DNA of 51,890 nt from positions 1-51,890 of the IMG/VR virus record IMGVR_UViG_3300032397_000018. One strand, 5' to 3'. This DNA is from a virus (taxonomy: Duplodnaviria; Caudoviricetes). The translations under genes were made by a program, and so were the position numbers. Below are positions 2,335 to 33,896 of this stretch, piece after piece (within the stretch, counting starts at the first letter, position 1; each line of letters starts with the position of its first letter). Under the pieces are notes generated by a model. The model did no database searches. It was not told where the DNA came from and was given only the letters and a program-made list of their open reading frames with translations.

Positions 2335-3795
2335 ATGCAACGTCACAGCATCCGTGTCCGCCTTCCTTCACCACATCCGAGCCAAGATGTCTTTGTCTAC
2401 TGGAACGACTGGCACCCTAAAGCCCAAGTGCTTGTAGGCCCATGCGGGACGAAGGCGGGAAAATCGTTTGGATCTGCCATTTGGTTATCTCGTGAGGCAA
2501 TGCTGTATTCTGGCCTGTACTGCCTCTGGATTGGTCCTACGATTGAAAAAGCAAAGATCGGTTACCGATACGTCAAAGCCATGATGCCCGAATCCATGGC
2601 GCAATGCAGCGATGCTAAATTAGAGATACGTCTGGCCAACAACACGTTTGTCAAATTTACTCACGGTCGTGATGCCGAAGTGACCGTTGAAGGCGAAAGC
2701 GTTCATCGGTTTGTGATGGATGAAGCTGGAAAACAACGCAGGCAGCTCTGGTACTCACTGCTGACCACGATTACTCAGACGCTCGGGCTTGGGATCATCA
2801 CGGGAACACCTAGAGGACTAAACTGGTACAGTGAGGTTTACCGACAAGCCATAAGTGGGGATCCATTTTTCTGCCACGCTCAACTCCCTACCTCAACCAG
2901 CCCGTATGTGTCGCCGCAGGCCATCGAAAACGCAAAAAGGATCCTCCCAACGTCGTTGTTCAATCAATACTATTTAGCGCAATTTGTCAGTGAAAGTAAT
3001 GTGTTCGGAGATCTTGGCGAGATTTGGTTTAGAGATCCACCAGTCAGAACCAATACCAAGTTGTGGATTCATCCCGATTTGGCACAGCGCTCTGTAGACA
3101 CCGTGACTGGCGTGGACGTGGCCAAAAAACGAGACTACACCGTCTTTCTCACGACCAATACCAACGGCATAGTCGTGGGATATTGGCGCTTCCGTGGAAT
3201 GGCCTACACAGAGCAGGCTCATGCGTTGGTAAAATACCTGAGCAAATTTCCGGGAGACAAGCACGTGCGTTACGACGCGACCGGCGTGGGCGAAGGCTTC
3301 GGTGACATTCTGAACGAAGTGGCCGACAATGTTGATGCCGTATTTATCCCCGTGTTATTCACAAATTTAGCAAAACAAGACATGGTTACCCGTACACGTA
3401 TCGCAATCGAGAGTGACTGGTGGAAATGTCCATATATTGAACAGATTGAACACGAATTCGCTGCATACGAAATGCGGGTATCTCGGACAGGTCTGCATAC
3501 TTTTGCTGCAGTTGAAGGCGAAAACGATGATTGCGTGTCAGCTGGTATGTTGTCGATCAGTGGAGCTTTTCAGAGCGCTAAAGCGGATTACGCAGTCGAG
3601 GTTCTGGAAAAATTAAACACTGGAAACAGAAAAAAGGACAGTGACGGCGAATATCAAACAGAAGACAATGACGAGATTAGCCAATGGGCAAATGCAGTAG
3701 GCAATGATTTCGATGAAATTGAAAACTGCGATGGTCTTGGCAGCGAAGCCGATGATATCGATGAAGAATCTATTTTTGGTGATTTGCAGGATTGA
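2335..3795 (+). CDS. terL: Terminase large subunit
   Basis: Walker A-like GTKAGKS, Walker B FVMDEA, motif III TGTP, nuclease motifs GVDVAKKRDYTV, DATGVG and NDDCV; start set at ATG 2335, after the MTase stop. Confidence 0.93.
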   Translation: MQRHSIRVRLPSPHPSQDVFVYWNDWHPKAQVLVGPCGTKAGKSFGSAIWLSREAMLYSGLYCLWIGPTIEKAKIGYRYVKAMMPESMAQCSDAKLEIRLANNTFVKFTHGRDAEVTVEGESVHRFVMDEAGKQRRQLWYSLLTTITQTLGLGIITGTPRGLNWYSEVYRQAISGDPFFCHAQLPTSTSPYVSPQAIENAKRILPTSLFNQYYLAQFVSESNVFGDLGEIWFRDPPVRTNTKLWIHPDLAQRSVDTVTGVDVAKKRDYTVFLTTNTNGIVVGYWRFRGMAYTEQAHALVKYLSKFPGDKHVRYDATGVGEGFGDILNEVADNVDAVFIPVLFTNLAKQDMVTRTRIAIESDWWKCPYIEQIEHEFAAYEMRVSRTGLHTFAAVEGENDDCVSAGMLSISGAFQSAKADYAVEVLEKLNTGNRKKDSDGEYQTEDNDEISQWANAVGNDFDEIENCDGLGSEADDIDEESIFGDLQD

Positions 3796-3797
3796 AC

Positions 3798-6194
3798 ATG
3801 AAAAATCCATTCTCTGGTCTGTTCTCTGGTCTGTTCCGTGGTCGCGTGATCCATCCAGTCGAAACTATTTCCAGCATTGCTGAACTGACTGAGATGGCAA
3901 TGATCCACGAGCGATTGGACGCTTTTATCGAGGCTGCCATGAAAAGGGAGATGGACCCGAACCTGGCAAACAGCATCAACGAGTATGGCGCAGATGAAGG
4001 CGCAGGTTATTTTGGCCGTGAATTTGAGTTACGGGCCACAGTAGGACGCCTGAAAAGCCTCTACTCCAGGGAGCCGTGGATTTATGCTGGGAGCACGCTG
4101 ATCGCACGGACGCTCACGTCTGTGCCCATGCGGATTTACGACAAACGCACGGGAGCAGTGATTCCAAATCATCCGTTAGAATTGTTGTACAAAACAGGGA
4201 GTCCTCTTGAAGATGGAATATCGGCGCAGTGGTCATCTGATCTGGACCTGGATCTGACTGGCAATGCCTTTCTGGTGCTAGATCCTACGATGCGCACCTA
4301 TGTCCACGTGCCAGTAGAACTATGCACGATGAAACTGGCTGATCCAAAAATTGACAATCGTATTGGCCTGCAAACGCTCGTGGTGACAGATCCCACGAAA
4401 CAAAACGGCAGCAAACAAGAGATTCCATATAAACAAATCATCCACTTACGCTTGCCAAATCCATCAAACAAATTCTATGGCATGTCAGCCTGGTGCGCGG
4501 CAGCTCGTCCGATCCTGCTTGACCGGTACAAGAGCGAATATGACATGGCGTTTTATCTGCGTGGCGCAACGCACACAGGCGTGATTGAGACAACCGAAGA
4601 CATGACTAAAAGTCGCATGGAACGGTTGATGCGCACATTCGAGGCAGCGTTTACTGGTCGCAGGAACTGGTGGCGTCCGCTGTTCTTGCCTCGTGGAGCC
4701 AAATGGATTTCTAGTAGTCCAACGATGGCCGAGATGCAGCATCTGGAAGGTCTCCGCGAAAACCGAAAAGTCATCCTCGCTGTTCGTGGAGTACCAGGTG
4801 CCATGGTTGGATTGGTAGAGGATGCCAATCGCGCGAACATGGAAACACAGGCACGCATATTTTGGGAAAATACGATCGTCCCGATGGCTGTGTTCAAGGC
4901 TGCGTGCTGGAATAACAGTTATTTGGCCAGAGTCATTTACCCGATGGTTGAGATGCGCCCAGATTTCACGGGCATCGAATCCCTGCAAGGCTCGCTCATC
5001 AGTCGTGGCGAGCAAGCTAAGGCCGTCGAGAACCACTGGAAACTGGACGAAATAAGGACCAAGATTTACGGCTTGCCTCCGATGGGTGATGAGCGTGGAG
5101 ATAAGCTGTTTGTCGAGATCAAACCAGCAGCACCAGCAGCCATACCAACGGGTCAAACTGGCCTGCCAGCAAGCGCAACGCCGTTGATGGATGCTGTGGC
5201 GGGGGGGACGCCTCCCAGCTCCCTACCGCCATCGTCAGCTCCCCAGGAGACCATTCCTGCTGAACCTGTTGCGCCACCACCTGCTGAGACACCGCCAGCT
5301 GAGACACCGCCAGCTAAAGGCAAGCGCACAGTCAATCTCCGCGTCAAAGACGAGGTAACGACGAGCCAAAATCGGATTGAGGAAAAATTGTCCGAAGCCG
5401 TGGACGTTGCCTATGCCGCGTTCATCGATCAGACATTGTCCGTAGCGCAACGTGCTGTGGCTGATCATCGTGATGTGCGGAGAGCATTAAATGAGTCAGA
5501 ACAACACCGAGTTGCGTCGTATTGGCAAGCGGTAAAATCATCAATGGATAAGGCGCTTGACCGAGGTTTCTTGGCAAGTCAGGCCAACGTGAGATGTTTG
5601 CCTATTGCCGTAGGCACCAAGGAAATCAAATACGAGTGGACAGAACTAGATCGACAGGCCGTGGAGATACTGCGAGAGCGTACAGTCGATGGTCAACGGA
5701 GATTGATGGCAGAGCGTGCTTTACAGCGCTTCTTTGGGCACAGTGTCCGCGTTACAGAACAGATCAATACCCTGGTCGATCAGGGGTTTGAGCAGGGATT
5801 GTCGTGGTCTGAGATTGCTCGCACAATCAGGGACAACTACACGGAGACCTATCCGAACCAGGCGAACACGATCGTGCGCACTGAAATTCTTAGCGCAGTC
5901 AGCCAGGGGTGGAAATGGAACCAAGAAGCGCTCACGACCATTTTTGACAAAGTGGACAAGCAGTGGCTCCATCAGGGAGATGCGGCGACCAATCCAGACG
6001 CCAGAGAGTGGCACGCTGATTTTGAAGATCTTGGTGTGGTCGATGCTGAATACGAGTTTGCATCTGGCCTTGCTTTTCCGCGTGATCCTCGTGCCGAGGC
6101 TGGGGAAATTATCAATTGCAGGTGTTCTGCTGTGAGCGTAATAGCGGGTGATGCTACCTCGCATGCCGCTACCATCATAGATTCGGAGTTTTAA
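3798..6194 (+). CDS. HK97-family portal protein fused to a MuF/gp7-like head morphogenesis domain
   Basis: Portal motifs (LTGNAF, IIHLRLPNP..FYGMS, GVPGAMVG); Pro-rich linker; C-terminal IVRTE...KQW...REWH...FPRDP...EIINCRC. Confidence 0.9.
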   Translation: MKNPFSGLFSGLFRGRVIHPVETISSIAELTEMAMIHERLDAFIEAAMKREMDPNLANSINEYGADEGAGYFGREFELRATVGRLKSLYSREPWIYAGSTLIARTLTSVPMRIYDKRTGAVIPNHPLELLYKTGSPLEDGISAQWSSDLDLDLTGNAFLVLDPTMRTYVHVPVELCTMKLADPKIDNRIGLQTLVVTDPTKQNGSKQEIPYKQIIHLRLPNPSNKFYGMSAWCAAARPILLDRYKSEYDMAFYLRGATHTGVIETTEDMTKSRMERLMRTFEAAFTGRRNWWRPLFLPRGAKWISSSPTMAEMQHLEGLRENRKVILAVRGVPGAMVGLVEDANRANMETQARIFWENTIVPMAVFKAACWNNSYLARVIYPMVEMRPDFTGIESLQGSLISRGEQAKAVENHWKLDEIRTKIYGLPPMGDERGDKLFVEIKPAAPAAIPTGQTGLPASATPLMDAVAGGTPPSSLPPSSAPQETIPAEPVAPPPAETPPAETPPAKGKRTVNLRVKDEVTTSQNRIEEKLSEAVDVAYAAFIDQTLSVAQRAVADHRDVRRALNESEQHRVASYWQAVKSSMDKALDRGFLASQANVRCLPIAVGTKEIKYEWTELDRQAVEILRERTVDGQRRLMAERALQRFFGHSVRVTEQINTLVDQGFEQGLSWSEIARTIRDNYTETYPNQANTIVRTEILSAVSQGWKWNQEALTTIFDKVDKQWLHQGDAATNPDAREWHADFEDLGVVDAEYEFASGLAFPRDPRAEAGEIINCRCSAVSVIAGDATSHAATIIDSEF

Positions 6195-7302: not shown

Positions 7303-8679
7303 ATGTCAGTTCAGAATCCCATTGCGCCAGGTTCCGAGAACGTGAACGACCATATCAAAGGCATTTACGACATTCTGTCGGGCAAACAAGCACCTGCTCA
7401 AATCGGCAAACCGATCTGGGAGAAGGATCTCGAAGTTGCTAAGGCGCATGGCGTGCGCACGATGGGCGATTTGTTCGGTCACCGAGACGACCAGGACAAC
7501 AAGCAGAGCGTGCGATCTATCAATTTCGGCAGCAAGGCCGATTGTCGGTTCATGGGTGATGACGTTCGTCTGCGCCTGTTCAATCTCAAGCGTCTGTTGA
7601 GCGATTGCGAAATCCAGGCCGGGTATGTTTTCAAGACGGGAATGCCATCCGCTGCTCAGATCATGGAAACACCGCTCTATCGAAACTACCTTGAACCCAC
7701 GCTAAAAGCCTTTAATATCACGGACTTCAGCCAATGGTTGCCCACCGTGCATTCGCGTTGGTATTTTGAGGAATATGAGATCCCGTATTTGCTCGCGAAC
7801 GAATTCGACACGATGCCCATGGACAGTTCGATTGTCCATATTCCAGGCGTGCTTGGCTTGTTGGAAGGCAAAGAAGAAACCGACGTTGCCACTTTCACAG
7901 AACAAGCGAACACGCAATCCTCGTTCGATGTGTACGCTCGTAATAACGTCGTCCACACGACCATCACCGAAGACCTGTCGATGGATTCCGCTCCTGCGGT
8001 GATTGACAAGCTTCGCCGTGAAGTTGTTGCCGGTAACGCCAGGGCATACGAGAGAGCAGTCATCAATGGCGATATCACGGGATCTCCTCGTGGTGCCTCG
8101 CACATGGATAGCGACATTGCAGCGATCGGCAAGCACTTCTGTAAGGCGTTCAACGGATTCCGCAAACGCGCCATGGACAACAGTTTGACTGTTGATCACA
8201 AAGGTGATTCGCCGAGTAAGGCGTTGTTCCTGAATATGCTGAAGAAAATGGGAAAATTCGGCAGCGAAAAATCCGATCTTCTTTGGGTTTATCCGTCAAG
8301 TGTTGGCACCGATCTCGTCGGTGGAGCGATCCCAGAATTGTTTACCGCATTTGCGTTTGGCGGCCTGGCTTCCAACGTCACTGGCGCAGTTCCTCCGGTT
8401 TTCGGCATCAAGGGTATCGAATCGCAGTATGTGCGCGAAGACCTGGATGCCACGGGCGTGTACGGCAGCGGCCAAACGAAGACCAATCTGTTGTTGGTCA
8501 AGAAATCACGGTTCTACAATTTCGCCAGAGCTGCGATTCGCGTCTGGGCCAGTCCGTCGCTTCCGAGCAGCGACATCATGCTCATGACAAGCAAAATCAG
8601 ACATGCCTTTTCAGGGACTCCTCAGACATCACTTGAAAAAAGTGTTGTTTGTGGAATCAACATCGAAACAGTCGCCTAA
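7303..8679 (+). CDS. Major capsid protein (HK97 fold)
   Basis: Position and size, strong AGGAG RBS; WLPTVHS, ITEDLSMDS, AVINGD and FNGFRK motifs; ~135 aa N-terminal extension before a possible K/A cleavage site. Confidence 0.88.
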   Translation: MSVQNPIAPGSENVNDHIKGIYDILSGKQAPAQIGKPIWEKDLEVAKAHGVRTMGDLFGHRDDQDNKQSVRSINFGSKADCRFMGDDVRLRLFNLKRLLSDCEIQAGYVFKTGMPSAAQIMETPLYRNYLEPTLKAFNITDFSQWLPTVHSRWYFEEYEIPYLLANEFDTMPMDSSIVHIPGVLGLLEGKEETDVATFTEQANTQSSFDVYARNNVVHTTITEDLSMDSAPAVIDKLRREVVAGNARAYERAVINGDITGSPRGASHMDSDIAAIGKHFCKAFNGFRKRAMDNSLTVDHKGDSPSKALFLNMLKKMGKFGSEKSDLLWVYPSSVGTDLVGGAIPELFTAFAFGGLASNVTGAVPPVFGIKGIESQYVREDLDATGVYGSGQTKTNLLLVKKSRFYNFARAAIRVWASPSLPSSDIMLMTSKIRHAFSGTPQTSLEKSVVCGINIETVA

Positions 8680-8685
8680 TTTAGT

Positions 8686-8759
8686 GGGCCAGACGTGGCC
8701 CTTGTAGCGCGACGCCTGGCCCTTTGGCCCTCGCCAGATCAGAGGGTTGAAGGGCCAGG
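8686..8759 (+). promoter_or_regulatory. Double stem-loop after the capsid gene (stabiliser, processing site or weak terminator)
   Basis: GGGCCA/TGGCCC (8686-8701) and an 18-bp stem with G-U pairs (8715-8759). Confidence 0.6.
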
Positions 8760-8777
8760 TTATTTCTGGGAGAAAAA

Positions 8778-9116
8778 ATGCCACGATATATCGAATACGA
8801 GGCTCTGCAATCCCTGGAGATCGGGCATCTTCAAGGTCGTCCAAAACTAAATCGTGGGGATCGCATTATCGTCTCCGTATCCTTCGCTGAAAATGTAATT
8901 TCCACATTTTATTTTGGATTGCTCATGCAGAAAAAAGAGCATGTTCTTGCCGCTGCATTGCCTGGTAATTTATTCATTAAACGAAAAGATTTCACAATTG
9001 TCCCAAATGAGTCTCAATCGCCTACACCGCAACAGGAATTAGCTCCACCGCTTCCGCGAGTGCGTAACCGTAGCATGGCCGATAAAGCTACGCGCAAGAC
9101 CAAGGGGTGTCCATGA
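8778..9116 (+). CDS. Hypothetical head-associated protein
   Basis: GGGAG RBS; sits between capsid and connector genes; ATGA overlap downstream. Confidence 0.65.
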   Translation: MPRYIEYEALQSLEIGHLQGRPKLNRGDRIIVSVSFAENVISTFYFGLLMQKKEHVLAAALPGNLFIKRKDFTIVPNESQSPTPQQELAPPLPRVRNRSMADKATRKTKGCP

Positions 9117-9712
9117 GCCTTTGCACGCTTCAAGAGATCAAGGATTGGCTCAAAGTCACTGACAGCAGTCAAGACGCGATCTTGACGACTGTTCAATTGT
9201 CTGTGGAGCAATCCATCAAAAACTACTGTGAAACGGATTTCTCTGCGCGAGAGATCACCAATGAGGTGCTTGATGGTGCGGGAAACGATGTCATCGTGCC
9301 ACGATATTGGCCAATCCTTGTCGTAGACGAGCTGCGCTTTTATATAAAATTGAACAGCACAGCAGGGAGCGTGGTTAGTTCCGAGGATTACCAAGTGGGA
9401 GAGACTGCCATTTACCTGGGTAATGGCCTACTCACGCCCAAAGGACGCGGTATTGTCGGTCTGGCTTACCATGCTGGTTATGCCGCAGTTCCTGCTGACA
9501 TCCAACTGGCTGTGCAAATGGGTGTCGAGGCTTACATGGCACGTAGACAACGTAAGAGCATTGGCGTGTCCAGTCGAGGCAAGGAAGGCGAGAGCGAGTC
9601 ATTTACCTCTGCGTGGGATAAGAAGTCTGGTTTGCCTCTTGAAGTGGTCTCAATGCTTGGCGCGTATCGTCCGATGGAATTCCCGTTGGGTACCGCCACG
9701 CGAGGACAATGA
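9113..9712 (+). CDS. Head-tail connector (gp6/gp15-like adaptor)
   Basis: LCTLQEIKDWLK, IKNYC, WPI, YHAGYAAVPADIQLAV motifs. Confidence 0.85.
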   Translation: MSLCTLQEIKDWLKVTDSSQDAILTTVQLSVEQSIKNYCETDFSAREITNEVLDGAGNDVIVPRYWPILVVDELRFYIKLNSTAGSVVSSEDYQVGETAIYLGNGLLTPKGRGIVGLAYHAGYAAVPADIQLAVQMGVEAYMARRQRKSIGVSSRGKEGESESFTSAWDKKSGLPLEVVSMLGAYRPMEFPLGTATRGQ

Positions 9713-10524
9713 TGCCAACATTGCGTGACATCAGCGAGATGAGTGCCTGGGTCCGTCAGATCCCTGACCGGATCGAGAAAGGTGCTGCTAAAGGCGTGAT
9801 CAAAGCCACGACAGAAGCTGAACGCATATCTAAGCAGATGGCCAGGATACAGTTCACCGGTCGCCGTGGTTATCGTAAAACCGGCAATCTCATGAATGCG
9901 ATCAAGGCGCAATATGAGATGGGCCAGCCAAACGCCAGTATCCATGGCAGGCCATTGCTGCAGGGTTACATCGTCGTCCGTGGGCAGAAAGGCAAGTACC
10001 CTGGCACCAAACCCTATGGTCGTGTCCACGAGTTTGGCAAGCCTTCTCAGACCGATCCTGAACCGATTAGACCTCGTAGGGCTAAGCACTTATGGGTGAA
10101 AAACTGGGAAGGAGATGCCAGGAAATTCAAGGATCTGACACCGACTGATTTTTTCAATCGCATGAAACAAGATCCGAGCAGTTATCGTTTGATTTATCCT
10201 AATCCAAAGATCAATAAGCAAAAGATTCCAATAGCTTGGTTCTTTGGAGAAATCAAAAAGCAGGCGAAATCAAGACGAAGCGCAACGGCCAAAACACGTA
10301 AATCCCGGATCGGAGCGGTAAAACCACATGGAAAAAATAAACGGTATGAAGGAAAGGCGGGCCCAAAAATAAAAGGTCCCCGCTGGATCCCGCTCTTTTT
10401 CTTGCGCAAGTCAGTCAAAATACCTGAGCGTCCATTTGTGCGACCAGCGGTCATGGCCGTGGTTGGCCCTAACATGAGAAGGTTTTGGTCCATTATCCAT
10501 TCTTCCATCGAACAGGAGCCCTAG
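9709..10524 (+). CDS. Neck/tail completion protein (HK97 gp10-like) with basic insertion
   Basis: KTGNLMNAI, YGRVHEFG and IPERPFVRPA motifs. Confidence 0.75.
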   Translation: MMPTLRDISEMSAWVRQIPDRIEKGAAKGVIKATTEAERISKQMARIQFTGRRGYRKTGNLMNAIKAQYEMGQPNASIHGRPLLQGYIVVRGQKGKYPGTKPYGRVHEFGKPSQTDPEPIRPRRAKHLWVKNWEGDARKFKDLTPTDFFNRMKQDPSSYRLIYPNPKINKQKIPIAWFFGEIKKQAKSRRSATAKTRKSRIGAVKPHGKNKRYEGKAGPKIKGPRWIPLFFLRKSVKIPERPFVRPAVMAVVGPNMRRFWSIIHSSIEQEP

Positions 10525-10989
10525 ATGGCCTGTAAACGCGCCGAAATACTGACAGCCCTTGCAGCTCGCCTAGCCACGGTAACGACGGATAACGGGTACA
10601 CTCTGAGCGTTAAGAAGGTATATGCCGATGATATCCCGTTGGGACTTGAATTGGCAGACCATGAGGTTCCTGCGATCCTGTTGCTCGACAAAGAATGTCG
10701 GCTCAATCACGAGTTCCAGGACTTGGATGCCGAATGGTTCCTGGAGCTGCAATTGATCCATGGGCAGGTGAATGATAGCGTGATGCTTGATTTCACTCGT
10801 CAGGTCTTGAAAGCTCTTTTTGTCGATCATCCGACAGCGGAAGGGAATTTGGGAATTAGGACACTCCATCCACTCGTGTACGATATCCATGCATTGTCTG
10901 CTTTCGGGGATTTGAATACCATCGAGGGTAATCGGTTCGCTATACTGGAGATCACGATCATGTTCAAATCAAAGACGTGGGATTTTTAA
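10525..10989 (+). CDS. Tail terminator-like protein
   Basis: KRAEILTALAARLATVTTDNGY N-terminus; size and position. Confidence 0.7.
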   Translation: MACKRAEILTALAARLATVTTDNGYTLSVKKVYADDIPLGLELADHEVPAILLLDKECRLNHEFQDLDAEWFLELQLIHGQVNDSVMLDFTRQVLKALFVDHPTAEGNLGIRTLHPLVYDIHALSAFGDLNTIEGNRFAILEITIMFKSKTWDF

Positions 10990-11010
10990 TTTTTTGGAAG
11001 GGAGCACCGT

Positions 11011-11391
11011 ATGAAGTCGTTTTTTTTCACTGTTATTTTTGCCGTCAGCACCTTGGCTTTCGATGCCAATGCGCAGGTGTTCTTTTCTAACACTCGCGTT
11101 GGATCAGTTGTTCAGACTCACACGACCGTGGACACATCGACGACTCTCGCCATTTCCTCGTCGTCTGTAGCGGCCAATCTGTTGGCGTGGAAGTTGTGCA
11201 ATGACGCAGTGAATACTTCCACCCATCTGTACGTGGGAAAAGCCACAGACGTGGCGACTGACGGCGTACAACTTGGCAAGGGCCAATGTTTCGATTGCCC
11301 GAATTGTACCGGAGCCACGCTAAAACTGATCAAGGTCAAGGGACAAGCGGCAACCAACGGTTATTCGATCATCCAATATAAGCAGCAATAA
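11011..11391 (+). CDS. Signal-peptide-bearing small beta-sandwich protein (paralog A)
   Basis: MKSFFFTVIFAVSTLAFDANA/Q signal peptide with AxA site; C-terminal ~70 aa paralogous to the next gene. Confidence 0.75.
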   Translation: MKSFFFTVIFAVSTLAFDANAQVFFSNTRVGSVVQTHTTVDTSTTLAISSSSVAANLLAWKLCNDAVNTSTHLYVGKATDVATDGVQLGKGQCFDCPNCTGATLKLIKVKGQAATNGYSIIQYKQQ

Positions 11392-11413
11392 CGACACGTA
11401 CCTGGAGGAATAA

Positions 11414-12157
11414 ATGATGAAATTGTTTACGTCTGTTTTGGCCATTGGGATCTTTGTTTTTAGTGGATTGGCGCACAGCCAGACCGTCATGCCTGGGACC
11501 AGGATAACCTCACAATCGTTTACAGCAGGCACGGCGGCTCCGACTGCGTATGAACAATTCGTTCAGACAGCTGGAGCTGATACCTCTAAATCCCTGCAAA
11601 ATAAGTACATTACGTTCTGTTTGCCGAATCTAGGGACGTGTTATGCGCCTTGGCTTAACGTGAACAGTGAAGGCGTGGCTCCGACTGTTGTTGGGCACAC
11701 ATTGATCGAAGTCGCTATCGCTACGGATGCGCTTGCTGGAGCTGTTGGAGACGCCTTGCAAGTCGCTATAGACGGCGTAACTGGCGTGACTTGCACCGAC
11801 AATAACGCGGGAGTGGTCACGTGCATTATGGATGCGAAAGGGCCAGCGACCAATGCTGCCGCTGGAAACACTGGGTGGGCAGCTCCGACTGTGACTCAGG
11901 GATTGCTCTCGACATATGCGATCTCTGCCGGTTCGATCCTGACTAATGTCATGGGATGGCGCATCTGTAATGCTTCTGCGAATGCCAGTACGTGGCTCGC
12001 TGTTGGTAAGAGCACTGATCCTGAGACTGACGGTGTGCGGATTGCTCAGGGTGTCTGTCTTGATTGTCCTAGTTGTTCCCGCGACACGCTTGGTCTGACC
12101 AAAGTCAGTTCACAGGCCGGCAGCAACGCTTATACCGTGATCCAGTTCAAGCAATAA
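11414..12157 (+). CDS. Signal-peptide-bearing beta-sandwich protein with inserted domain (paralog B)
   Basis: MMKLFTSVLAIGIFVFSGLAHS/Q signal peptide; GGAGG RBS; shared WxxCN...VGK.TD..TDGV....G.C.DCP.C...IQxKQ. Confidence 0.75.
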   Translation: MMKLFTSVLAIGIFVFSGLAHSQTVMPGTRITSQSFTAGTAAPTAYEQFVQTAGADTSKSLQNKYITFCLPNLGTCYAPWLNVNSEGVAPTVVGHTLIEVAIATDALAGAVGDALQVAIDGVTGVTCTDNNAGVVTCIMDAKGPATNAAAGNTGWAAPTVTQGLLSTYAISAGSILTNVMGWRICNASANASTWLAVGKSTDPETDGVRIAQGVCLDCPSCSRDTLGLTKVSSQAGSNAYTVIQFKQ

Positions 12158-12190
12158 CATACGCGCCAAGGCGCATATAGGAGACAGCAC

Positions 12191-13786
12191 ATGGCCAAGC
12201 GCCGATCCAGAGTCGATTTCAAAGCCATTTATGAAGGCGATAAGCAGGGCTATAACGTTGGCCTCGACTGCTCGCTTTTTCTTCGCAAAGAAGTCACTGC
12301 GCGTGTGTTTCAGGTCCCTCGCGTAGGGACAGCAGGAACGAGTACCAGTGCCTCGACACCAAGCACCGATATTTCCGCAGGAACCGACACATCGTTTAAA
12401 ATCGTCGTGGACAGCATGACTGTGGCTGTGACTGTGACGTTGGTTGTGACTGGTCTTACCTCTGGAGCGTTGATTGCTGCTGCCCTTGAGACCAAGATCA
12501 ATGACGCATTGATCGCAGCCAGTCGTGATGAGCGTGTGACCGTGACGTATGGGACCACGTATGTGATCACCAGCCAAGGCAGTGGGACATCCAGCAAGGT
12601 GGTCGTGACCGATGCCACGTCTAATAATGTGGCTGACGATCTCAAGATAGGCGTGGCCAATCTGGGCGTCGAAACGGTAGGAACCAACGATCAAGATTTC
12701 TTGCTCCATACCACGGGTGGCGCGTCGTTCAATCAACCGATCGAAAGCAACGCTCACCGCAGTGGACGGTTCCATAGTGGCGTCATCAAGCAGAAAAAAG
12801 TTGCTGAATTTGACTTTGACACCTACATCAATATGTCGGGTTCTGCTGGATCCAGCCTTGATACGCCAGTCAAATTGTTGTGGCAGCAGCTTCTGGGAAC
12901 CGAAGAATTGCCAGGAACGACAATCGTCTACAAACAAGGACTGCCCAATTTCACGTTCTCCCTGGTTCGTGTCAGCACGATCTTTGCTGAATATTACACG
13001 GGAGGCTACGTGCGCTCAGGCACGCTCACAGCAGACGGTGCTGCGCCAGCGACGATGAAATGGGCAGGCAAGGCCAGTAAGGCGGTCGTGGCGGGGATCA
13101 GCAAGATCTCTACACCAGTTAGCGGTGTGGCTCTTATCCCATTGACGAGCGGCGAAGAATTGCGCTTCGAGGCTGGCGCTCCTGTTATGACGCTCAATGC
13201 GGATGGCCGTACTATTCTCGATGGTTTCGATGGATCTTTGACTGTGTTGAGCAGAGATGAGACTGGACACACGATCACGTTGTCGTCTGTCGTGACCATC
13301 CCTGCCAGTGGGTTTGTCGTGTACTGGCATCCTGGCGCTTTGGGTACCACGGCGAAAAACGCGATCTTTACGGATCTCGTTGGTTCATTCAAGTTGCGTT
13401 CGGCGGGATCTGCTGTGGACACCAGTAATTTGTCGTTGGAAATTGCCAATGATCATAACGACCTGGACACTTATTTCGGCAAAGATGCGAATGCCGGGTT
13501 TGTGGCTGGCAATCGTTGCACGATGAAACTGAGTGTGACTGCTGATTTGAGCAACGAGAACTTTGGTGAGATTGTGAAGTTGCGTGACTTCAGCGGTCTC
13601 GATCCCGTGTTCCTCTTGGGGGATCCGACAACTGGTCGTGCAATGCGAATCAGTGCGACCAAATGGATTCCATCAGTACCGACGATTGAAGTCCCTGAGA
13701 ACGGGACAACGCCTGTCACGCTGGAGGGAAACCTTTTTGAGTCCACTCCTGGAGCAAAAGATCCTGTCGTGGTATCGTTTGAATAA
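12191..13786 (+). CDS. Major tail tube protein with two inserted domains
   Basis: AGGAG RBS; followed by a terminator, chaperone and tape measure gene; tube-like core interrupted by Thr/Val-rich insertions. Confidence 0.75.
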   Translation: MAKRRSRVDFKAIYEGDKQGYNVGLDCSLFLRKEVTARVFQVPRVGTAGTSTSASTPSTDISAGTDTSFKIVVDSMTVAVTVTLVVTGLTSGALIAAALETKINDALIAASRDERVTVTYGTTYVITSQGSGTSSKVVVTDATSNNVADDLKIGVANLGVETVGTNDQDFLLHTTGGASFNQPIESNAHRSGRFHSGVIKQKKVAEFDFDTYINMSGSAGSSLDTPVKLLWQQLLGTEELPGTTIVYKQGLPNFTFSLVRVSTIFAEYYTGGYVRSGTLTADGAAPATMKWAGKASKAVVAGISKISTPVSGVALIPLTSGEELRFEAGAPVMTLNADGRTILDGFDGSLTVLSRDETGHTITLSSVVTIPASGFVVYWHPGALGTTAKNAIFTDLVGSFKLRSAGSAVDTSNLSLEIANDHNDLDTYFGKDANAGFVAGNRCTMKLSVTADLSNENFGEIVKLRDFSGLDPVFLLGDPTTGRAMRISATKWIPSVPTIEVPENGTTPVTLEGNLFESTPGAKDPVVVSFE

Positions 13787-13823
13787 CCCCTGACAGGTTG
13801 AGCATCACTTTCTCCTTTAGAAG

Positions 13824-13854
13824 CCTCATCAAAATTTTTGATGAGGTTTTTTTT
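13824..13854 (+). terminator. Rho-independent terminator
   Basis: CCTCATCAAAA-T-TTTTGATGAGG inverted repeat followed by T8. Confidence 0.85.
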
Positions 13855-13907
13855 ATTTGTGTGGTACGTTTTTGCTGACACGATTTACCACAAATAGGGA
13901 TAAAACG

Positions 13908-14396
13908 ATGGCAATCAAGGGAAATCAAATAGGGAATCGACATAATGCCGTGTGCATGATTTCAAAGATTGATGACGCGATTGACTGGCAAGTAAGCGAT
14001 GCTGATGCCTATGCCAAAACACTGGATGAGAAGTATCTCATCTTGCTTTCTGGGAAAGAGCCCACTCGATTTCTCTGCAATTTTGATCTGGATGCGAAAA
14101 GCAACAGCGAGATTGAAGATGCCATGATTGCTGGCGTAACAGAGAATGGAACGATGAAGCCTGGGATCGGATCGTATAATCTGGCCGTAGTGCGCCACGT
14201 CCTGAAGGATATCAAAAACCCTGTCAGTTTGCCCGTGGAGGAACACCTGCTTTTTAAGCGCACAGCTGATGGCAAAGTATCGGACGAAACGCTTGACCAG
14301 CTTGCTCGATTGGGAATAATCACAGAAATTTCTGCTGCTTTCTCAAGCATGACCAAAGGCAGCGTGTTGCGTGATCGTCAATCCGCAAAAAACTAA
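13908..14396 (+). CDS. Tail assembly chaperone (gpG-like)
   Basis: Between tube and tape measure genes; ends GCA AAA AAC TAA, containing slippery heptamer A AAA AAC. Confidence 0.8.
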   Translation: MAIKGNQIGNRHNAVCMISKIDDAIDWQVSDADAYAKTLDEKYLILLSGKEPTRFLCNFDLDAKSNSEIEDAMIAGVTENGTMKPGIGSYNLAVVRHVLKDIKNPVSLPVEEHLLFKRTADGKVSDETLDQLARLGIITEISAAFSSMTKGSVLRDRQSAKN

Positions 14397-14836
14397 TTTG
14401 CGCTCTGGTTGATCTTTCTTTTGCGAATCGCAGAGCGCTCAAAAATTTCACCTGTGCCAATTGTCCTCCATCCAGGATCGCACAACGCAAATGTGAGGAT
14501 CCTGGTTTTGAAAACATCAAGCGTCCAATTCGAATTGACGAGTCCAGCCTCGACTATCGATTTTGCCCAGGGAAGGCTACAAAATACCCTGAAATTGCCG
14601 AATTATTCATGCAATGCTCTATCGCTCGGTCAACGGGTATAATGCCCAGAGACGGCGGTTTGGATCGACAAGATGCAGTCTTTCCAGACGCCTTGTATGT
14701 GTTCCTGGAGCGATGGACAGCGCGAACTTACGCCATGATATGGCATGATGTTGGTGAATTCACGAGCAAGGTTCTGGCCGCAGTGTTTGGCAAAAAAGGT
14801 GGAAGCTCTACCGGATCTCCACCAATCGAGAGGTAA
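14390..14836 (+). CDS. -1 frameshift extension of the tail chaperone (gpT-like part of the G-T fusion)
   Basis: The -1 frame is open from 14390 (KLICALVDLSF...) through the listed ORF 14609-14836, including MPRDGGLDRQD. Confidence 0.8.
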   Translation, partial: KLICALVDLSFANRRALKNFTCANCPPSRIAQRKCEDPGFENIKRPIRIDESSLDYRFCPGKATKYPEIAELFMQCSIARSTGIMPRDGGLDRQDAVFPDALYVFLERWTARTYAMIWHDVGEFTSKVLAAVFGKKGGSSTGSPPIER

Positions 14837-14839
14837 ACC

Positions 14840-17800
14840 ATGGCAGTTAGTTCTTCCGCTGATTTTTTTGTAACACTAGGCGTGCAAGACAACTTCACTC
14901 CTGCTATGCAACAGGCTGTAAATACTGCCGAACAAGTCGTCAGTTCAATGGGTCGTCTGAGTCTTAATATCATCACCATGAATCAGGCTCTTGAGTTGGC
15001 TCAAAAAGCATGGTCGGCGTTAGGTAAGATCGTCGAAATGGTTGGCATCCATGAATATGCTGAGGCTGAAAAAAACGTACTCAAGCTAAGTTTCGCTCTC
15101 GCCAATCAAGGTCAAGATGTCGAGGCTGGAGTAAAACATTTTGAACACCTTACGAATGAGATTCAGCGCAACAGCACGGCCAGTGAAGACACATTGATGA
15201 AGTTGGCCGCTCAGTCTAAAGCGCTGGGATTAACCACAGACATGACAGACAAACTGTTGCGTGGGAGCGTGGACCTGGCTGCGGTCATGGATACAGACGT
15301 CGATCAAGCTTTTCAGCAGTTGCTGTCATCGTTGGCGGGCAATGCTCGTGGGATAGGCCGGTACATCAAAGCTGTGAGGGACATGACTCCTGAGATGCTC
15401 CAGGCAGGTGGAGCCGTTGAATATGTAGCCAACAAAATGAAAGGGTTCGCGGAGAGAGAAGCCGGAACAATGCTTGGGCGCACAGAGCAAATAAAGAATG
15501 GTTTTAAACAATTAAAACAATCTCTTGGAGAGTTGTCTGTTACAGCATTTACGATCCCTGGCCTAAATGCTGGTCCTAGTCCGATAGCCAAAACTATTTT
15601 TGATATCGTCGAGGAACTGAAAAGTCTGATCCCAGTTGTTGTCGAGGCACGCAACAAAGTTTTGGCTTTTTTTGGCGGTTTGAAAATTGCGTTTATCGAT
15701 GTCGATTGGACAGGAATCTTTGGCTCGTTTACACGGGCTGTTTTGCAAGCTGCCGCTGCTGTTGCGGTCTTTGCCGTGGCGAGTAATTTGAGTCTGATTA
15801 TTGCGTCGATTCCGTTGATCGAGATTGGCTTTGCGCTGATTACAGCTCGCCTATGGGCTATGGCCAAAGCGTTCACGGCAGCCTCTGCTTCGATAGCCGT
15901 TACGGCTGTCAAATTTACTGCAGTTGCACTTGGAGCCGTGACAACGGCCATAGCGATTGATTTGATCATCCGCAATATCGACAAATTGGGAAAACTTTTT
16001 GCTACCTCATTTTTGCACATTATCGGTGGCGCGGTAATTGTCGTGCGTGAGTTGGTAAATCTGATCGGCATGATCCCTGGGATGGGAGGACCAACAGAAG
16101 CGGCTTTGGGAAAAATAGATGGTCTTTTGGAATCCATGGCTGTGTCTGCGGGAGAGTTCAGCGAAGGTCTCGATCTTGGTTTTGCAGGAAAGGTGTTTAC
16201 CGAAGGCCAGAAGTTCATGCGCAATCTGGCTGAAGGCACTGATCTTACAGCAAAAAAGCTGAAAGAAGCAGAAGCTAAAGCAAAAGATTTTGGAGTTGTC
16301 TTAAAAGCGTCAGTAGGCACAGCAGTGAAACTCACTGACGATTTGAAAAAGCAGCTCGATGAGATCCTGAAACGCTACAAAGACAATCAGCAAGCCATTT
16401 CCGAGGCTGGTCTAACCGAAGGGCAGGCCATCATTCTGCGAGCAACTGCTGCTCGTGAAGCGATCGTGCAGTTTGAGCGAGAACTGAAAATCCGTGGCAT
16501 GTTGACTACGGAAATTAAAAATCAACTGGCTGCTGCACGCGAGGCAGAAGGCGTTCGCGGCAATATCGAGTTGGACAAACTGCGTGTCAAAATGATGACC
16601 GAGGCAGTTACCAAAGCCGATGAATTACAGCAGTCTCTCGACAAGCAGCGGATGACTGAGAGAGAACTGGTCGCAGCTGATCTAAAGCGCACAACGGCAG
16701 CAATCGATCTCCAGCGGTTCAATGCTCTGCAAAACGAGACGTGGACTCCTGAAATGGAGCGTGTGTTACAGGGCTCTGCAAAGGCTGCCAAAGAGTTGGC
16801 AGCGATCAAGATGTCCGAACTACCGATGACGATGCGGGATGCCTTTAAAGAGATCTCCAAGGGCTTTAAAGCGGTAGGTACTGGTTCGGTATGGTCTGGA
16901 CTCTGGCAGATGGGAAAAGGAGTTGCTAGCGCGATTGGCACTGCGATCATGATTGCTGCCGATTACGTTGGGGAAGTCTTGGAAGGCGCGTTCTCCGTAG
17001 CCAAGGGATTATTTGGAGGAGGATACGTTGATGTGGTCAGCGACATTATCGATGCTGTCGGCAGCATTCCACAAATGCTCACGACGGCCATGACACGGTT
17101 GGGGAGTGTGATCGATAAAATCGTGTCTCAATTTCCTGTCATGGTGCAACAGCTCGTTGCCGCTTTGCCAGGGATTGTCGATAAGATCGTGGCCGCTTTT
17201 CCGCAACTCATAGCTACTATTGCGGATTCATTACCAAAAATTGCTCAAACCATAGGTCAACAATTTCCGCGAATCATTGCCGCTCTGATGGATGCGATTC
17301 CAAAACTGGTGGAAATGTTGCCGTCAATCATTGCTCCCTTGCTCGATGGATTGGTCAATGCTGTAGGCATTATCATTGACAAATTACCTGCGATCCTGAC
17401 GAGCATTTTCCAGACGTTACCAAAATTAGCTGTCGAGATTTTCCGTGCCATTCCTTCCCTCGTGGCGAATCTCTTGGAAAACATAGATGACGTTATTTTT
17501 GCTTTTGTCGATGGATTGATTGCCTCTGAAGGAGAAATCGTCGGTGGGTTTATCGATCAGTTTTTTATGCAAGGTGGTGCTGAACGCCTTATTGGTTCTA
17601 TCATTCGATCGATTCCAAAAATAGTGTTCGCTCTTGTACGCGGTATCGCATCAGGCTTGAGCAAGGCTTTAAAAGGCATAATGGGTGGAGGTTTTGGCGC
17701 AATCAAGGCACCAGCAGCGTTGATTGATTTGCCCAAAAAATTAGAAGGAGCCTTTAAAAAACTCGGCCAGGTCGTGAGTGCAGATACCAGCAAGTTGTTT

Positions 17801-24316: not shown

Positions 24317-26035
24317 ATGACAATAATTTCACGATTGAAATTAGATCATCCAATACTCGGTACCTCTGCTGGCGCTGGTTTACATTCTAGCCTCGAAAGC
24401 ATCTATCTAAAAATCGGTGATTCTCTTTCCAGCCGATTCTTTACGATCGAAAACCTCAATGACTCTACTTCTGTTGATTGTGACCATAATTTCAACACGT
24501 TAATTGGCAATCTACGTTACGACCTCTATCTGTGGGACACGGTCACTGGGGAAATAACACTCCTCACAGAAGACACGACTCCCACGCTGGCGTCTTTTGG
24601 CATCATCGCCAAAGTCGGTGACACCAAAAAACAGTTCACTGTGACCAATAATTCTGGTGCTCAACGCGATCTAGTCCTCATGGTCTTCAACGATCCCCTG
24701 GAGCTGAATGAGCTGACCGATGTGGATACCGCAGGGAAAGAAGATGGTCAGGCGATGGTCTATGACCTCGCTACGAAGCTCTGGAAGCCGGGAGCCTCTG
24801 GAGATGCCTCCTTTAAGCTGCAATCGATCACAGATCCCAATGCGATCCTCAAGGGGGGATATTTGATGCTCCCTGATGGCAGGGAGCTTGCGACTTACGA
24901 CGGGACTGGTGGAGCATCGACTGATTTCGGCAAAGACATGACGGTAAATCTGGACACCATCTTGGGCGGAAGTCCAGCCAATGCCACGTCCTATTTTTTG
25001 TACATCGATCTGAACACGCTTGGAGCAGTAACGGTTTGCTCAGACAATGGTCGCAGACTTTACGCTGTTACTCAGGCCAATCTGGTCCTGTCTGTGACCG
25101 CTCCAGAGGTCGCGAACCTCAATCGCTATGTTGCGCGTGGGGTGATTCGATCGGCGACAACAGGGACGGTATGGTCGGGTACAGGATCAACATTTGCGAC
25201 GATGGCGTCGTTGCGCCATGATCCGCTCGGATCGTTTTTTTCTTACATCGAGGAAAAACTGGACAGTGCCACGTCTGCTGCGGTCAAAACTGTCACACAT
25301 GGATTGAGTGGTAGGCCGAACCTTCCTCCCACTTTGGAGTTTGTGACATTTTTGACGGGCAAACGGACTCCGCTTTCCGCTGAAACGTATTGCACCGACA
25401 ACAACGCGACCACAACGGTTTTCGATTTTTCTTCTCTGACGTTTGCCTCCAGTGATCGTGTCGAGATTGGTCTCTATTACTGTCCCAGGGTGGCCAATGG
25501 ATTCGTCTCCAGCTCGCAGCAATACGAGAGTCCATGGTTTGATTCGGCGCTCCCCGCAAGCGCAACGCACGGTCAGGCGGACAAATTCGCGATCAGAGCG
25601 GTGTCCTACCTCGAATGGGATGTGACAGCGGGAACAATCAAGCAGCGGGAATGTACGCTTGGTTTAGTCACATACTGGAACGACACCACGATCTATTTTA
25701 ACGGCACTGGCATTACGCCATCGAGCACGCTGAAATATAAAATCGTGGCTGGTGGTTCTCCTCTGCCGCAGGCAGCAGCTCCGATCATGGGCAGCATGTT
25801 CGAGTTTACGGCTCTTGGGCAATTGGCATCTGGGAGCACGGCTTACGTCTGCTCGAAGATGTTTGGTGACAGCCCGACAGAGATTGCCGTGGTTCAGAAG
25901 AAGACCAATGGCTGGCAGCCTGTCCCCATCGTTGACTCGATTTGGGTCACTGCTGATGGCAACAAGTATCTGCGCGGGGACATCGATGTTCTGGTGCCGT
26001 CTGTGTCTGAACCTGTGAGAATCACAGTAAGATAA
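24317..26035 (+). CDS. Tail fibre-like protein
   Basis: LNELTDV...DGQAMVYD...LWKP fibre motif; repeated HN/HG beta modules (CDHNFN, VTHGLS, ATHGQ). Confidence 0.7.
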   Translation: MTIISRLKLDHPILGTSAGAGLHSSLESIYLKIGDSLSSRFFTIENLNDSTSVDCDHNFNTLIGNLRYDLYLWDTVTGEITLLTEDTTPTLASFGIIAKVGDTKKQFTVTNNSGAQRDLVLMVFNDPLELNELTDVDTAGKEDGQAMVYDLATKLWKPGASGDASFKLQSITDPNAILKGGYLMLPDGRELATYDGTGGASTDFGKDMTVNLDTILGGSPANATSYFLYIDLNTLGAVTVCSDNGRRLYAVTQANLVLSVTAPEVANLNRYVARGVIRSATTGTVWSGTGSTFATMASLRHDPLGSFFSYIEEKLDSATSAAVKTVTHGLSGRPNLPPTLEFVTFLTGKRTPLSAETYCTDNNATTTVFDFSSLTFASSDRVEIGLYYCPRVANGFVSSSQQYESPWFDSALPASATHGQADKFAIRAVSYLEWDVTAGTIKQRECTLGLVTYWNDTTIYFNGTGITPSSTLKYKIVAGGSPLPQAAAPIMGSMFEFTALGQLASGSTAYVCSKMFGDSPTEIAVVQKKTNGWQPVPIVDSIWVTADGNKYLRGDIDVLVPSVSEPVRITVR

Positions 26036-27284: not shown

Positions 27285-27300
27285 AAAGGAGCCTCTCAAT

Positions 27301-28146
27301 ATGAAACGTCTAATCCCTCTAATCCTAGCCCTCTTCGCCAGCACTGCGTTTGGCGTGGTCATCAAAGAATCGAAGTCGAATACACCGATTGATTTCTACA
27401 CTGCGCCTAGTGGGGTGGTGACGAAGCAGGCATCGCTAACTAGCACAGGCACCTGGACTTTAACCAATCCAACTTTTACGACTAATACGGCAGACGGAGC
27501 AGACAGTGCTGCGGTGTCTCTTGCTGGAGGTGGTTCAGGTAACTCAACGAGAGGTGCAACTTTATATCTAGGTGGCAACGAGAACGCTAACGCTGGAAAG
27601 ACGTTTTTCAGTGCGGGAGACGCTGCTGGTGGGTCCGCTACAGCGTTTAGCTGGTACAGCAGCTCAACAGTTGGCGGTGCTAGCACAGAGAAGATGGCTT
27701 TGACTGGAGATGGTGTTCTGACTGTCAACGGTTATTCTGTAGCTACAGAAAGCAGCGGAACTTTTACTGTTACATGGAAGGATAGTGTAGCAACACCTAT
27801 GGCCATAGATGTAGTTAGATACGCTAAATCTGGAAATGTTGTTACCTTGAGGTTCCAAGCCGGAATTTGGGGATCTGCCCCAGCTGTCGGCGTATTCACC
27901 ATAGCTGCGGGGACAATACCAGCAGCATTACGTCCCAGTGGTACGGGATTTGTACTTCTTATGGTATTTGCTAGAAACGATTCTGGTTCAAACAGCACAA
28001 CTGCCAGCAATTTATATATTTATGGAGCTACGCATGCAAATGCTGGTGGGGGATATCTCGCTTTCGGAGCGAATGACGCCAATTTTGGGACTAATACTTA
28101 CGTCGGTATGTTGGGCGGTGCCTCTGTTTCTTATGTGGTGAATTAA
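27301..28146 (+). CDS. Fibre/adhesin-like protein with N-terminal signal peptide
   Basis: MKRLIPLILALFASTAFG/V; EKMALTGDG fibre motif; C-terminal RYAKSGNVVTL...IPAALRP module; AGGAG RBS. Confidence 0.75.
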   Translation: MKRLIPLILALFASTAFGVVIKESKSNTPIDFYTAPSGVVTKQASLTSTGTWTLTNPTFTTNTADGADSAAVSLAGGGSGNSTRGATLYLGGNENANAGKTFFSAGDAAGGSATAFSWYSSSTVGGASTEKMALTGDGVLTVNGYSVATESSGTFTVTWKDSVATPMAIDVVRYAKSGNVVTLRFQAGIWGSAPAVGVFTIAAGTIPAALRPSGTGFVLLMVFARNDSGSNSTTASNLYIYGATHANAGGGYLAFGANDANFGTNTYVGMLGGASVSYVVN

Positions 28147-28147
28147 C

Positions 28148-33837: not shown

Positions 33838-33844
33838 TGCGTTT

Positions 33845-33871
33845 GGCCGGGATCTTCCCGGCCTTTTTTTT
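33845..33871 (+). terminator. Rho-independent terminator
   Basis: GGCCGGGA-TCT-TCCCGGCC followed by T8. Confidence 0.9.
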
Positions 33872-33896
33872 ATTGATCGCCATGGAAGGACGACCG

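Follow-up and report, generated by a model that had tools for sequence, protein, structure and literature searches.

The 51,890 bp window analysed here, which is the whole of IMG/VR virus record IMGVR_UViG_3300032397_000018 (completeness rating 100%), carries at 11011-12157 two adjacent open reading frames (ORFs), ORF1 and ORF2, whose paralogous products bear export leaders and invariant cysteines. Both genes are real and belong to the late tail operon of an uncultured tailed phage, and their products very probably work outside the cytoplasm. With high confidence, on sequence and model grounds, the two proteins are predicted to be exported by the Sec pathway, cut by signal peptidase I (mostly before a Gln) and folded outside the cytoplasm as a jellyroll with two disulfides; ORF2 would add a surface-type domain with Cys pairs of its own, and both would come from a stock in common with leaderless jellyrolls of the fibre module. 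The role that we tentatively favour is a protective or receptor-jamming one, exercised in the periplasm late in infection, in the host envelope.

A closed family with two architectures

The paralogy of ORF1 and ORF2, proposed in a preliminary description of this DNA, is clear: 41 of 82 residues are identical (50%; E = 7e-30). A word-indexed homolog search recovered 41 relatives for ORF1 and 13 for ORF2. The profile and the family alignment (A3) include 54 of 56 sequences, 40 short and 14 long, while P0047 and P0054, which have long N-terminal extensions, were excluded. Searched against 1.84 billion representative proteins, the profile returned 30 proteins or clusters, all of viral type and all at E <= 1e-10, with none between 1e-10 and 1e-3; six of these have a length of 240-249 amino acids (aa), 22 measure 119-150 aa and the remaining two are fragments. 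The clean gap in E-values and the two length classes indicate that the family is closed and has just two architectures. Neither ORF family has a match in Pfam, PHROG or NCBIfam (two NCBIfam rows for ORF1 fall far below the cut-offs), and an Atlas search with ORF1 found solely unnamed viral clusters (scores 0.93-0.94).

Export leaders

Sec signal peptides had been claimed for both proteins, and the claim is upheld by a leader shape that is kept in every full-length homolog. Leaders were scored with a rule of our own, which asks for K or R in the n-region, followed by a hydrophobic core free of charges and by small residues at positions -3 and -1. This rule passed 37 of 42 ORF1-family sequences; the five misses are failures of the anchor pattern, with N-termini that read ASA (twice), VMA, AAA and AQA, each followed by Q. 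ORF1-family leaders are 18-27 aa in length, mostly with one K or R, and have a core hydrophobicity of 2.2-3.4. In the alignments the initial 18-32 residues drift freely, yet they retain one or two K/R, a hydrophobic run and small residues at -3 and -1, and conservation sets in abruptly thereafter. A leader that is free in sequence and kept in shape, followed by conserved sequence after the cleavage point, is the signature of a cleaved signal. Among further representatives from the profile search a leader is found in 25 of 27, the other two being truncated fragments of 97 and 52 aa. Translation from a downstream start, which the preliminary description had named as one way in which its reading could fail, is set aside as far as ATG is concerned: mature ORF1 has no Met and therefore no internal ATG for a leaderless form. 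This check covered ATG starts alone.

In A3 all 40 short members and 13 of the 14 long ones have Gln as their first mature residue, and none has Cys; in a more distant subclade G, D, A or E takes this place. We read Gln at +1 as a family trait that probably leaves the N-terminus blocked. Under the Q-rule of Bacteroidetes, as set out in PMC5837995 and PMC10653852, an exposed +1 Gln is cyclised to pyroglutamate, and PMC10367356 reports phage proteins that obey this rule.

Three other modes of export were considered. Export by the twin-arginine translocation (Tat) pathway is rejected, as the short leaders, most of them with a single K/R and with core hydrophobicity in the range given above, lack a twin-arginine consensus. 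Lipoprotein identity is rejected because there is no lipobox: 53 of 54 sequences begin their mature part with Gln, and none begins it with Cys. Cargo status for type IX secretion, which the +1 Gln would fit, is judged improbable: there is no Pfam or NCBIfam match to Por_Secre_tail or to the type IX C-terminal domain (CTD), and the use of Shine-Dalgarno sites argues against a Bacteroidota host.

Cysteines and the case for disulfides

The four conserved Cys residues noted previously in the shared domain (C63, C93, C96 and C99 in ORF1 numbering) do not vary in any of the 54 aligned sequences. Mature short members have exactly four Cys (40 of 40), while long members have eight (six sequences), six (six), four (one) or nine (one), so that the count is even in 53 of 54 overall. 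The extra Cys of the long form differ by subgroup, with two pairs in one, one pair in another and none in one sequence. Gain and loss in pairs, together with even counts, form the pattern of disulfide-bonded exported proteins.

A different reading of the same residues is that the hydrophobic N-terminus either has no export function or stays uncleaved, that the protein is cytoplasmic or membrane-anchored and joins the usual tail assembly, and that its Cys bind Zn or an Fe-S cluster. The spacing does resemble that of metal-binding knuckles; a PDB sequence search with the ORF1 profile gave nothing significant, and its sole match, a zinc-finger pocket at a non-significant E of 3.3, points the same way; and the case for export is a computational one. 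We regard this reading as very improbable. An n/h/c layout with small residues at -3 and -1 in all full-length members, despite drift, is hard to explain otherwise; the absence of an internal ATG from mature ORF1 and the pairing of the extra Cys also speak against it, and an uncleaved leader would still place the domain in the periplasm. A ferredoxin-type 4Fe-4S site was rejected in particular: the C-x2-C-x2-C spacing is present, but the leaders are of Sec and not Tat type. Sec translocates unfolded chains, and for this reason the Fe-S reading is disfavoured.

A predicted jellyroll with an inserted domain

The structural model of ORF2 has a mean predicted local distance difference test (pLDDT) score of 74.4, with the leader below 50 and the blocks of the inserted domain at 85-92. 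A Foldseek search of this model against the PDB gave 0 matches at E <= 0.001. VIA-align, run against 48,161 chains, divided the model into two parts, residues ~44-165 and residues ~26-45 plus 166-247; the Z values of both parts sit at or slightly above the background of 7-8 that is stated for the tool. The first part matches 8kee_A (Z 8.9; root-mean-square deviation (rmsd) 2.2, 89 residues aligned), 8i4m_A (Z 8.8), 4nx9_A (Z 8.7) and 9cb9_A (Z 8.4), and the matches are outer domains of tail sheaths, nozzle proteins of T7 type and flagellin. The second part matches small jellyrolls, namely the PM2 spike P1 (Z 7.5), Ena (Z 7.3), PirA (Z 7.3) and cupins; the best match among solved jellyrolls is the receptor-binding part of P1 (2vve_B). 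Since these matches skip the middle of ORF2, and A3 aligns the N-termini of both proteins, ORF2 is read as an ORF1-like jellyroll with an inserted domain. Sharing of a C-terminal domain, as described earlier, therefore stands, while its restriction to the C-terminus does not, because the N-terminal strands of ORF2 (~29-45) complete the jellyroll.

In the BFVD database the ORF2 model has 14 matches at E <= 0.001, among them large 'baseplate J-like' proteins from uncultured phages and, at 89-101 aa, small phage proteins. An origin of the ORF2 insertion as a copy of the insertion in the tube protein was rejected (hhalign probability 0.3%). A complex prediction for the tube protein with mature ORF1 (residues 22-126) gave a score of 0.00 in two runs without controls and counts neither way.

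Predicted signal-less jellyrolls of the fibre module

Two proteins at 29.9-31.5 kb, of 275 and 105 aa and without signal peptides (table 1), had been described as resembling the conserved pattern of ORF1 and ORF2. They are paralogous to each other (BLASTP E 0.003; local hidden Markov model (HMM) E 3.7e-7 among ~270 proteins). In sequence, the link to ORF1 is weak, with BLASTP E-values of 0.011 for the 275-aa and 2.0 for the 105-aa protein. Alignment of A3 with the family of the signal-less proteins (A4) by hhalign gave a probability of 19.6% and an E-value of 0.0012 over 65 columns, in the register proposed earlier, and each family's HMM ranks the other first among sub-threshold matches (E 0.33-1.1). 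The ORF1/ORF2 profile search of the 1.84 billion proteins did not retrieve them.

In structure the likeness is closer. The model of the 105-aa protein matches PM2 P1 at Z 8.7 (rmsd 2.6, 84 aligned) and Ena at Z 7.2, and, among the matches listed, 21 of 50 PDB entries and 8 of 50 BFVD rows for this model also appear in the lists for ORF2. Assignment of ORF1/ORF2 and the 105-aa protein to one fold class is supported by these shared lists of model matches, and the part of the earlier claim that concerned fold is thereby retained; common descent with the 29.9-31.5 kb proteins is plausible.

The 275-aa and 105-aa pair is part of the fibre end of the genome, which is variable. An earlier search of four relatives and viral contigs found no homologs of the 275-aa protein; by local HMM the pair emerged in relative G006 (L023:9076-10611), and not in G003 or G005.

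Position in the tail operon

As the preliminary description had it, ORF1 and ORF2 lie between a tail terminator, here a weak PHROG 5078 match, and a tail tube gene of Phage_tube_2 type; both reading frames are present, each preceded at 6-8 nt by a Shine-Dalgarno motif. The intergenic gaps are 21 nt (terminator gene to ORF1), 22 nt (ORF1 to ORF2) and 33 nt (ORF2 to the tube gene), and the ribosome-binding sites of the pair are strong, comparable to those of the capsid and tube genes. Within 8500-15000 there are three promoter-like sites against 6.2 expected, of which the sole + strand site is at 14293; none on the + strand precedes ORF1 or ORF2, and the first + strand terminator lies past the tube gene. 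The inverted repeat between ORF2 and the tube gene has no T-run on the + strand and is thus not a + strand terminator. A hairpin of this kind before the tube gene and a strong T-run hairpin after it would fit high, discrete expression of the tube. The tube assignment itself comes from Atlas features (0.96-0.98 to PF18906 clusters) and from structure (template modelling (TM) scores of 0.64/0.86 to a PF18906 cluster); the protein has no Pfam match, and a PDB sequence search gave nothing significant.

Table 1. Features of the tail block and fibre region of the window.
Feature	Position	Strand	Remarks
Tail-terminator-like gene, 154 aa	10525-10989	+	PHROG 5078, E 1.9e-4, residues 3-66; syntenic across all related loci
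ORF1, 126 aa	11011-11391	+	
ORF1 signal peptide, 21 aa	11011-11073	+	ends ANA, predicted cleavage before Gln22; leader shape constant across 42 members
ORF1 mature protein, 105 aa + stop	11074-11391	+	complete small jellyroll; fold inferred from homologous part of ORF2 model
ORF1 invariant Cys codons	11197-11199, 11287-11289, 11296-11298, 11305-11307	+	
ORF2, 247 aa	11414-12157	+	
ORF2 signal peptide, 22 aa	11414-11479	+	ends AHS, predicted cleavage before Gln23
ORF2 N-terminal strands, residues 23-43	11480-11542	+	complete the jellyroll by model matches; aligned in A3 with ORF1 N-terminus
ORF2 inserted alpha/beta domain, residues ~44-165	11543-11908	+	VIA-align; four extra Cys in its subgroup; block pLDDT 85-92
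ORF2 C-terminal jellyroll part, residues 166-247 + stop	11909-12157	+	ORF1 paralogy and model
ORF2 invariant Cys codons	11966-11968, 12056-12058, 12065-12067, 12074-12076	+	
Inverted repeat between ORF2 and tube gene	12157-12179		listed solely as minus-strand pattern; no + strand T-run
Tail tube protein, 531 aa	12191-13786	+	T5 pb6 / Phage_tube_2 type; Atlas features, structure
Strong terminator-like hairpin	13819-13851	+	15-pair stem and T-run; after tube gene, ends unit holding ORF1/ORF2
412-aa protein, leader and PHROG 4492 tail-fibre domain	26046-27284		E 2.7e-42
281-aa leader-bearing protein	27301-28146		
Cys-rich lipoprotein-like ORF, 121 aa	28148-28513		11 Cys, 10 after presumed lipobox Cys
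Signal-less 275-aa protein	29918-30745	+	C-terminal ~105 aa paralogous to 31178-31495
Signal-less stand-alone small jellyroll, 105 aa	31178-31495	+	model pLDDT 82.4

Synteny, copy number and conservation

Three scans of viral contigs yielded 17 further contigs with the terminator-tube junction (18 with the window); as several of these are near-identical, they amount to about a dozen independent types. Members of the family lie between terminator and tube in 17 of the 18, in one to three copies: short plus long in ten, short plus short in three, short-long-short in two and a single short copy in two. The remaining contig, L040 (10,661 bp), has none by tblastn in the 8.2 kb examined. Its terminator-tube spacer (3863-3992) is 128 nt of AT-rich DNA, and its tube protein is 49% identical. 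Variable copy number and one loss fit an accessory over a core part.

In comparison with three complete relatives, the mean identity of ORF1 is 65.9%, which places it first of the ten genes common to all three; the capsid protein stands at 57.9, the tube protein at 52.8, the terminase at 48.6 and the tail completion protein at 28.3. ORF2 is less conserved, at 31-55% identity.

A gene that is exported and encoded amid structural genes invites comparison with the lambda-type morons bor and lom. These code for exported proteins in late operons, have their own promoter and terminator, are sporadic and serve the lysogen. ORF1 and ORF2 differ in having no promoter-like site before them and a position kept in 17 of 18 contigs, in a phage for which no integrase or repressor family was matched among the 51 window proteins scanned; a lambda-type moron was accordingly rejected, given the absence of a + strand promoter or terminator of their own and their presence across the contigs.

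Possible roles in the envelope or on the virion

The preliminary description had offered two fates for the proteins, attachment to the virion at or after lysis once folded in the periplasm, or service in the envelope as repurposed structural domains. The premises common to both, an export leader, even numbers of Cys and a fold of virion-surface type, are supported. Two considerations pull in different directions. The fixed place beside the tube gene and conservation at the level of the capsid lean to a link with the virion, while topology and the lack of precedent in the literature searched lean to the envelope.

The envelope role is the reading that we tentatively prefer. On this account ORF1 and ORF2 would not be built into the virion in the cytoplasm and would act on the host envelope late in infection. 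They could bind a conserved component that faces the periplasm, such as the periplasmic face of a receptor or the route of DNA entry, and progeny or superinfecting relatives would be spared from infected cells and lysis debris. Conservation of the first copy would reflect a conserved target, and the additional, faster-evolving copies (one to three per genome in all) might widen or retune the activity. The role would be akin to that of T5 Llp on FhuA, performed here by soluble proteins.

Llp of T5 is periplasmic and inactivates FhuA by reverse allostery, according to PMC9586334; its purpose as stated there, to guard progeny against infected cells and debris, fits a lytic phage. Like Llp, ORF1 and ORF2 would be small, phage-encoded, Sec-exported, Cys-containing proteins active in the periplasm, in a phage with a tube and capsid of T5 type. 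Cor of T1/phi80-type phages is another small protein that inactivates an outer-membrane receptor from the periplasmic side. The likeness is one of description, and unlike the lipoproteins Llp and Cor, ORF1 and ORF2 have no lipobox. They differ from Llp also in that they adjoin the tube gene rather than the gene for the receptor-binding protein, are inferred to be late and are far more conserved. The antiholin RI and Spackle of T4 are periplasmic proteins with cleavable leaders and provide a further parallel, as Sec-exported proteins of a lytic phage that act in the periplasm; set apart by description, they have other folds and other contexts, outside the tail operon.

Several points weigh against an envelope role and, in part, against its premises. 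To our knowledge, the proteins established in exclusion and receptor jamming (Llp, Cor, Sp, Imm) do not rank with the best conserved of their phages, and their genes lie near receptor-binding or early genes. ORF1 and ORF2 immediately precede the tube gene in the tail operon and, among closer relatives, are conserved at the level of the capsid. Superinfection-exclusion proteins are described in PMC9586334 as expressed early. In distant relatives the identity of ORF1 is 41-53%, level with or below that of the capsid and tube proteins, so that the description as 'most conserved' is limited to the closer subclade. The leader call relies on our own rule and on conservation; the disulfides are predicted from sequence, and C-x2-C-P-x-C with a remote Cys is a spacing that could bind metal. 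The folds are those of virion-surface domains and suit a virion role equally. Finally, for a soluble protein in the periplasm, access to the cell surface would take another step of secretion, and no target is inferable from the sequence.

The other fate is a periplasm-matured tail decoration: the proteins would be exported, oxidised and folded in the periplasm, and would bind the finished tail, in its tube or terminator region, only once holin lesions and then lysis had merged periplasm and cytoplasm. We consider this possible, albeit on the unlikely side. In its support, 17 of 18 contigs keep these genes at one fixed place, between terminator and tube, the transcription unit is held in common, the ribosome-binding sites are as strong as those of the capsid and tube genes, and the conservation of ORF1 equals that of major structural proteins. 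The folds recall the exterior of virions (outer domain of sheaths, T7-type nozzle and flagellin at Z 8.4-8.9; PM2 P1 at Z 7.5-8.7), paralogous folds without signals occur in the fibre module, and the genes are lost in one relative, as dispensable decorations can be. The central-fibre ortholog of G003 moreover has a 26-aa leader-like extension with a ribosome-binding site. Against it, no Sec-exported component of a tailed virion was found in the open-access full-text literature searched, and no leader-bearing protein between terminator and tube is reported in those full texts. The tail would have to be found in a brief interval around lysis. The tube protein has no conserved Cys, so that a covalent link of ORF1 or ORF2 to the tube is not expected, and proteins that are decorated usually outdo their decoration proteins in conservation.

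The spike P1 of PM2 (2vve/2w0c) is probably of the same fold class as the models of ORF2 (Z 7.5) and the 105-aa protein (Z 8.7), at Z values in or slightly above the common range of the tool and with no sequence similarity, and unnamed tailed-phage proteins of 85-100 aa in BFVD would fall into this class too, with TM scores of 0.5-0.9 by target length. The Ig-like domains of lambda gpV and T5 pb6, and Hoc, are non-essential, surface-exposed, beta-rich proteins or domains that vary in number and are encoded in or beside major structural genes; unlike ORF1 and ORF2, they lack a leader, and the cytoplasm is where they fold and attach. Ena of Bacillus endospores (7a02) combines a small jellyroll with structural Cys (Z 7.3 for ORF2, 7.2 for the 105-aa protein), a resemblance expected for any protein of this fold. 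Ena subunits, which are leaderless, cross-link through an N-terminal connector that bears Cys, whereas the N-terminal stretch of ORF1 and ORF2 is without Cys.

Other leader-bearing proteins and the lysis region

Just past the central fibre gene (24317-26035) sits a cluster at 26046-28513 of two leader-bearing proteins and a Cys-rich lipoprotein-like ORF (table 1). Leader-bearing ORFs beside the fibre genes suggest a wider envelope-directed programme. The idea that the 412-aa fibre-like protein of this cluster is conserved was abandoned, there being no match in five relatives. In G003 the central-fibre ortholog (L025:2613-6800, minus strand, 1395 aa) has the leader-like N-terminal extension mentioned above, with its own ribosome-binding site and 3 nt past the previous stop; the extension is without counterpart in the window and G006 orthologs, and this fibre may start instead at the conserved N-terminus. 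On the decoration account, the leader-bearing fibre-like proteins (26046-28146 and the G003 ortholog) would take the same two-compartment route. The broader proposal, of a tailed-phage clade that completes its virions outside the cytoplasm by Sec export, oxidation, a pyroglutamate cap and loading of the tail at holin lesions, is one that we rate as conceivable and rather doubtful.

The replication half of the window encodes a papain-family cysteine peptidase (43280-44509; PF00112, E 1.9e-53), which may also be exported, given a leader-like hydrophobic stretch after an internal Met at residue 31.

In the lysis region (33822-34887) a small lipoprotein-like ORF with the lipobox LFGC ends at the start of the endolysin (34046-34552), and a holin-like membrane protein of 112 aa follows at 34549-34887. 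No two-component spanin pair was recognised near the endolysin. ORF1 and ORF2 could be late effectors that time or complete lysis or release, with peptidoglycan, the outer membrane or a periplasmic enzyme as their target, for example as an outer-membrane disruptor in place of spanins or as an inhibitor of a host enzyme. They are predicted to be exported and late, a release function would be conserved, and among the recognisable lysis genes there is no spanin pair beside the small lipoprotein-like and holin-like ORFs. We nonetheless hold this to be improbable: the lysis cassette is 23 kb distant, the proteins have neither an amphipathic or cationic peptide character nor a match to an enzyme family, L040 is without the genes in the 8.2 kb examined, and copy number varies.

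The phage and its host

The phage is a siphophage of 51.9 kb, complete and probably lytic, whose capsid and tail tube are T5-like. Genes recognised with Pfam and PHROGs comprise a methylase, large terminase, portal with a Mu-F-like domain, prohead protease, capsid protein, head-tail adaptor, tail completion protein, the weakly matched tail terminator and a tape measure of 1466 aa. The capsid protein has matches limited to distant T5-like Vibrio phage capsids, at 21-25% identity. The portal (3792-6194) is fused to the Mu F-like head-morphogenesis domain (PF04860 and PF04233; 800 aa). In the second half of the window are the endolysin, a resolvase, a Sak4-like protein, a helicase, a primase-helicase and the papain-family peptidase. 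Two N6/N4 DNA methylases are encoded at 1539-2315 and 44571-45887, the second with a ParB-like N-terminal part (PHROG 8071, 620). Pfam and PHROG scans of 51 window proteins gave no match to integrase or repressor families, and the window has no tRNAs.

Among 50,697 phage records, tblastn and megablast found no match to ORF2, the 11-kb region or the tube protein. Scans with the ORF1 and tube families of 185,579 prokaryote genomes, one per species, found no relative, and hence no prophage copy. Shine-Dalgarno matches of at least 5 nt stand before 26 of the 67 ORFs; at 2000 random positions their rate is 6.3%. Such heavy use argues against a Bacteroidota host. A Bacteroidota host had been considered from the +1 Gln; it is contradicted by this Shine-Dalgarno use, and in the distant subclade Gln gives way to G, D, A or E.

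Implications for tailed-phage biology

The assembly of tailed phages is taught as purely cytoplasmic, and exported proteins encoded by phages are seen as peripheral accessories. The combination described here is unusual in that an exported protein of disulfide type, among the best conserved of its clade, is fixed in the tail operon, has folds of the virion surface and has undergone local duplication. If the envelope role is true, ORF1 and ORF2 would establish a new family of phage effectors, soluble and periplasmic, whose target is under unusual constraint. If the virion role is true, they would be the first example of a tailed-phage assembly step that spans two compartments, and would explain how a particle may carry pre-formed disulfides and hardened surface domains that are impossible in the reducing cytoplasm. 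In either case the family offers a testable handle, since the proteins are small and easily expressed.

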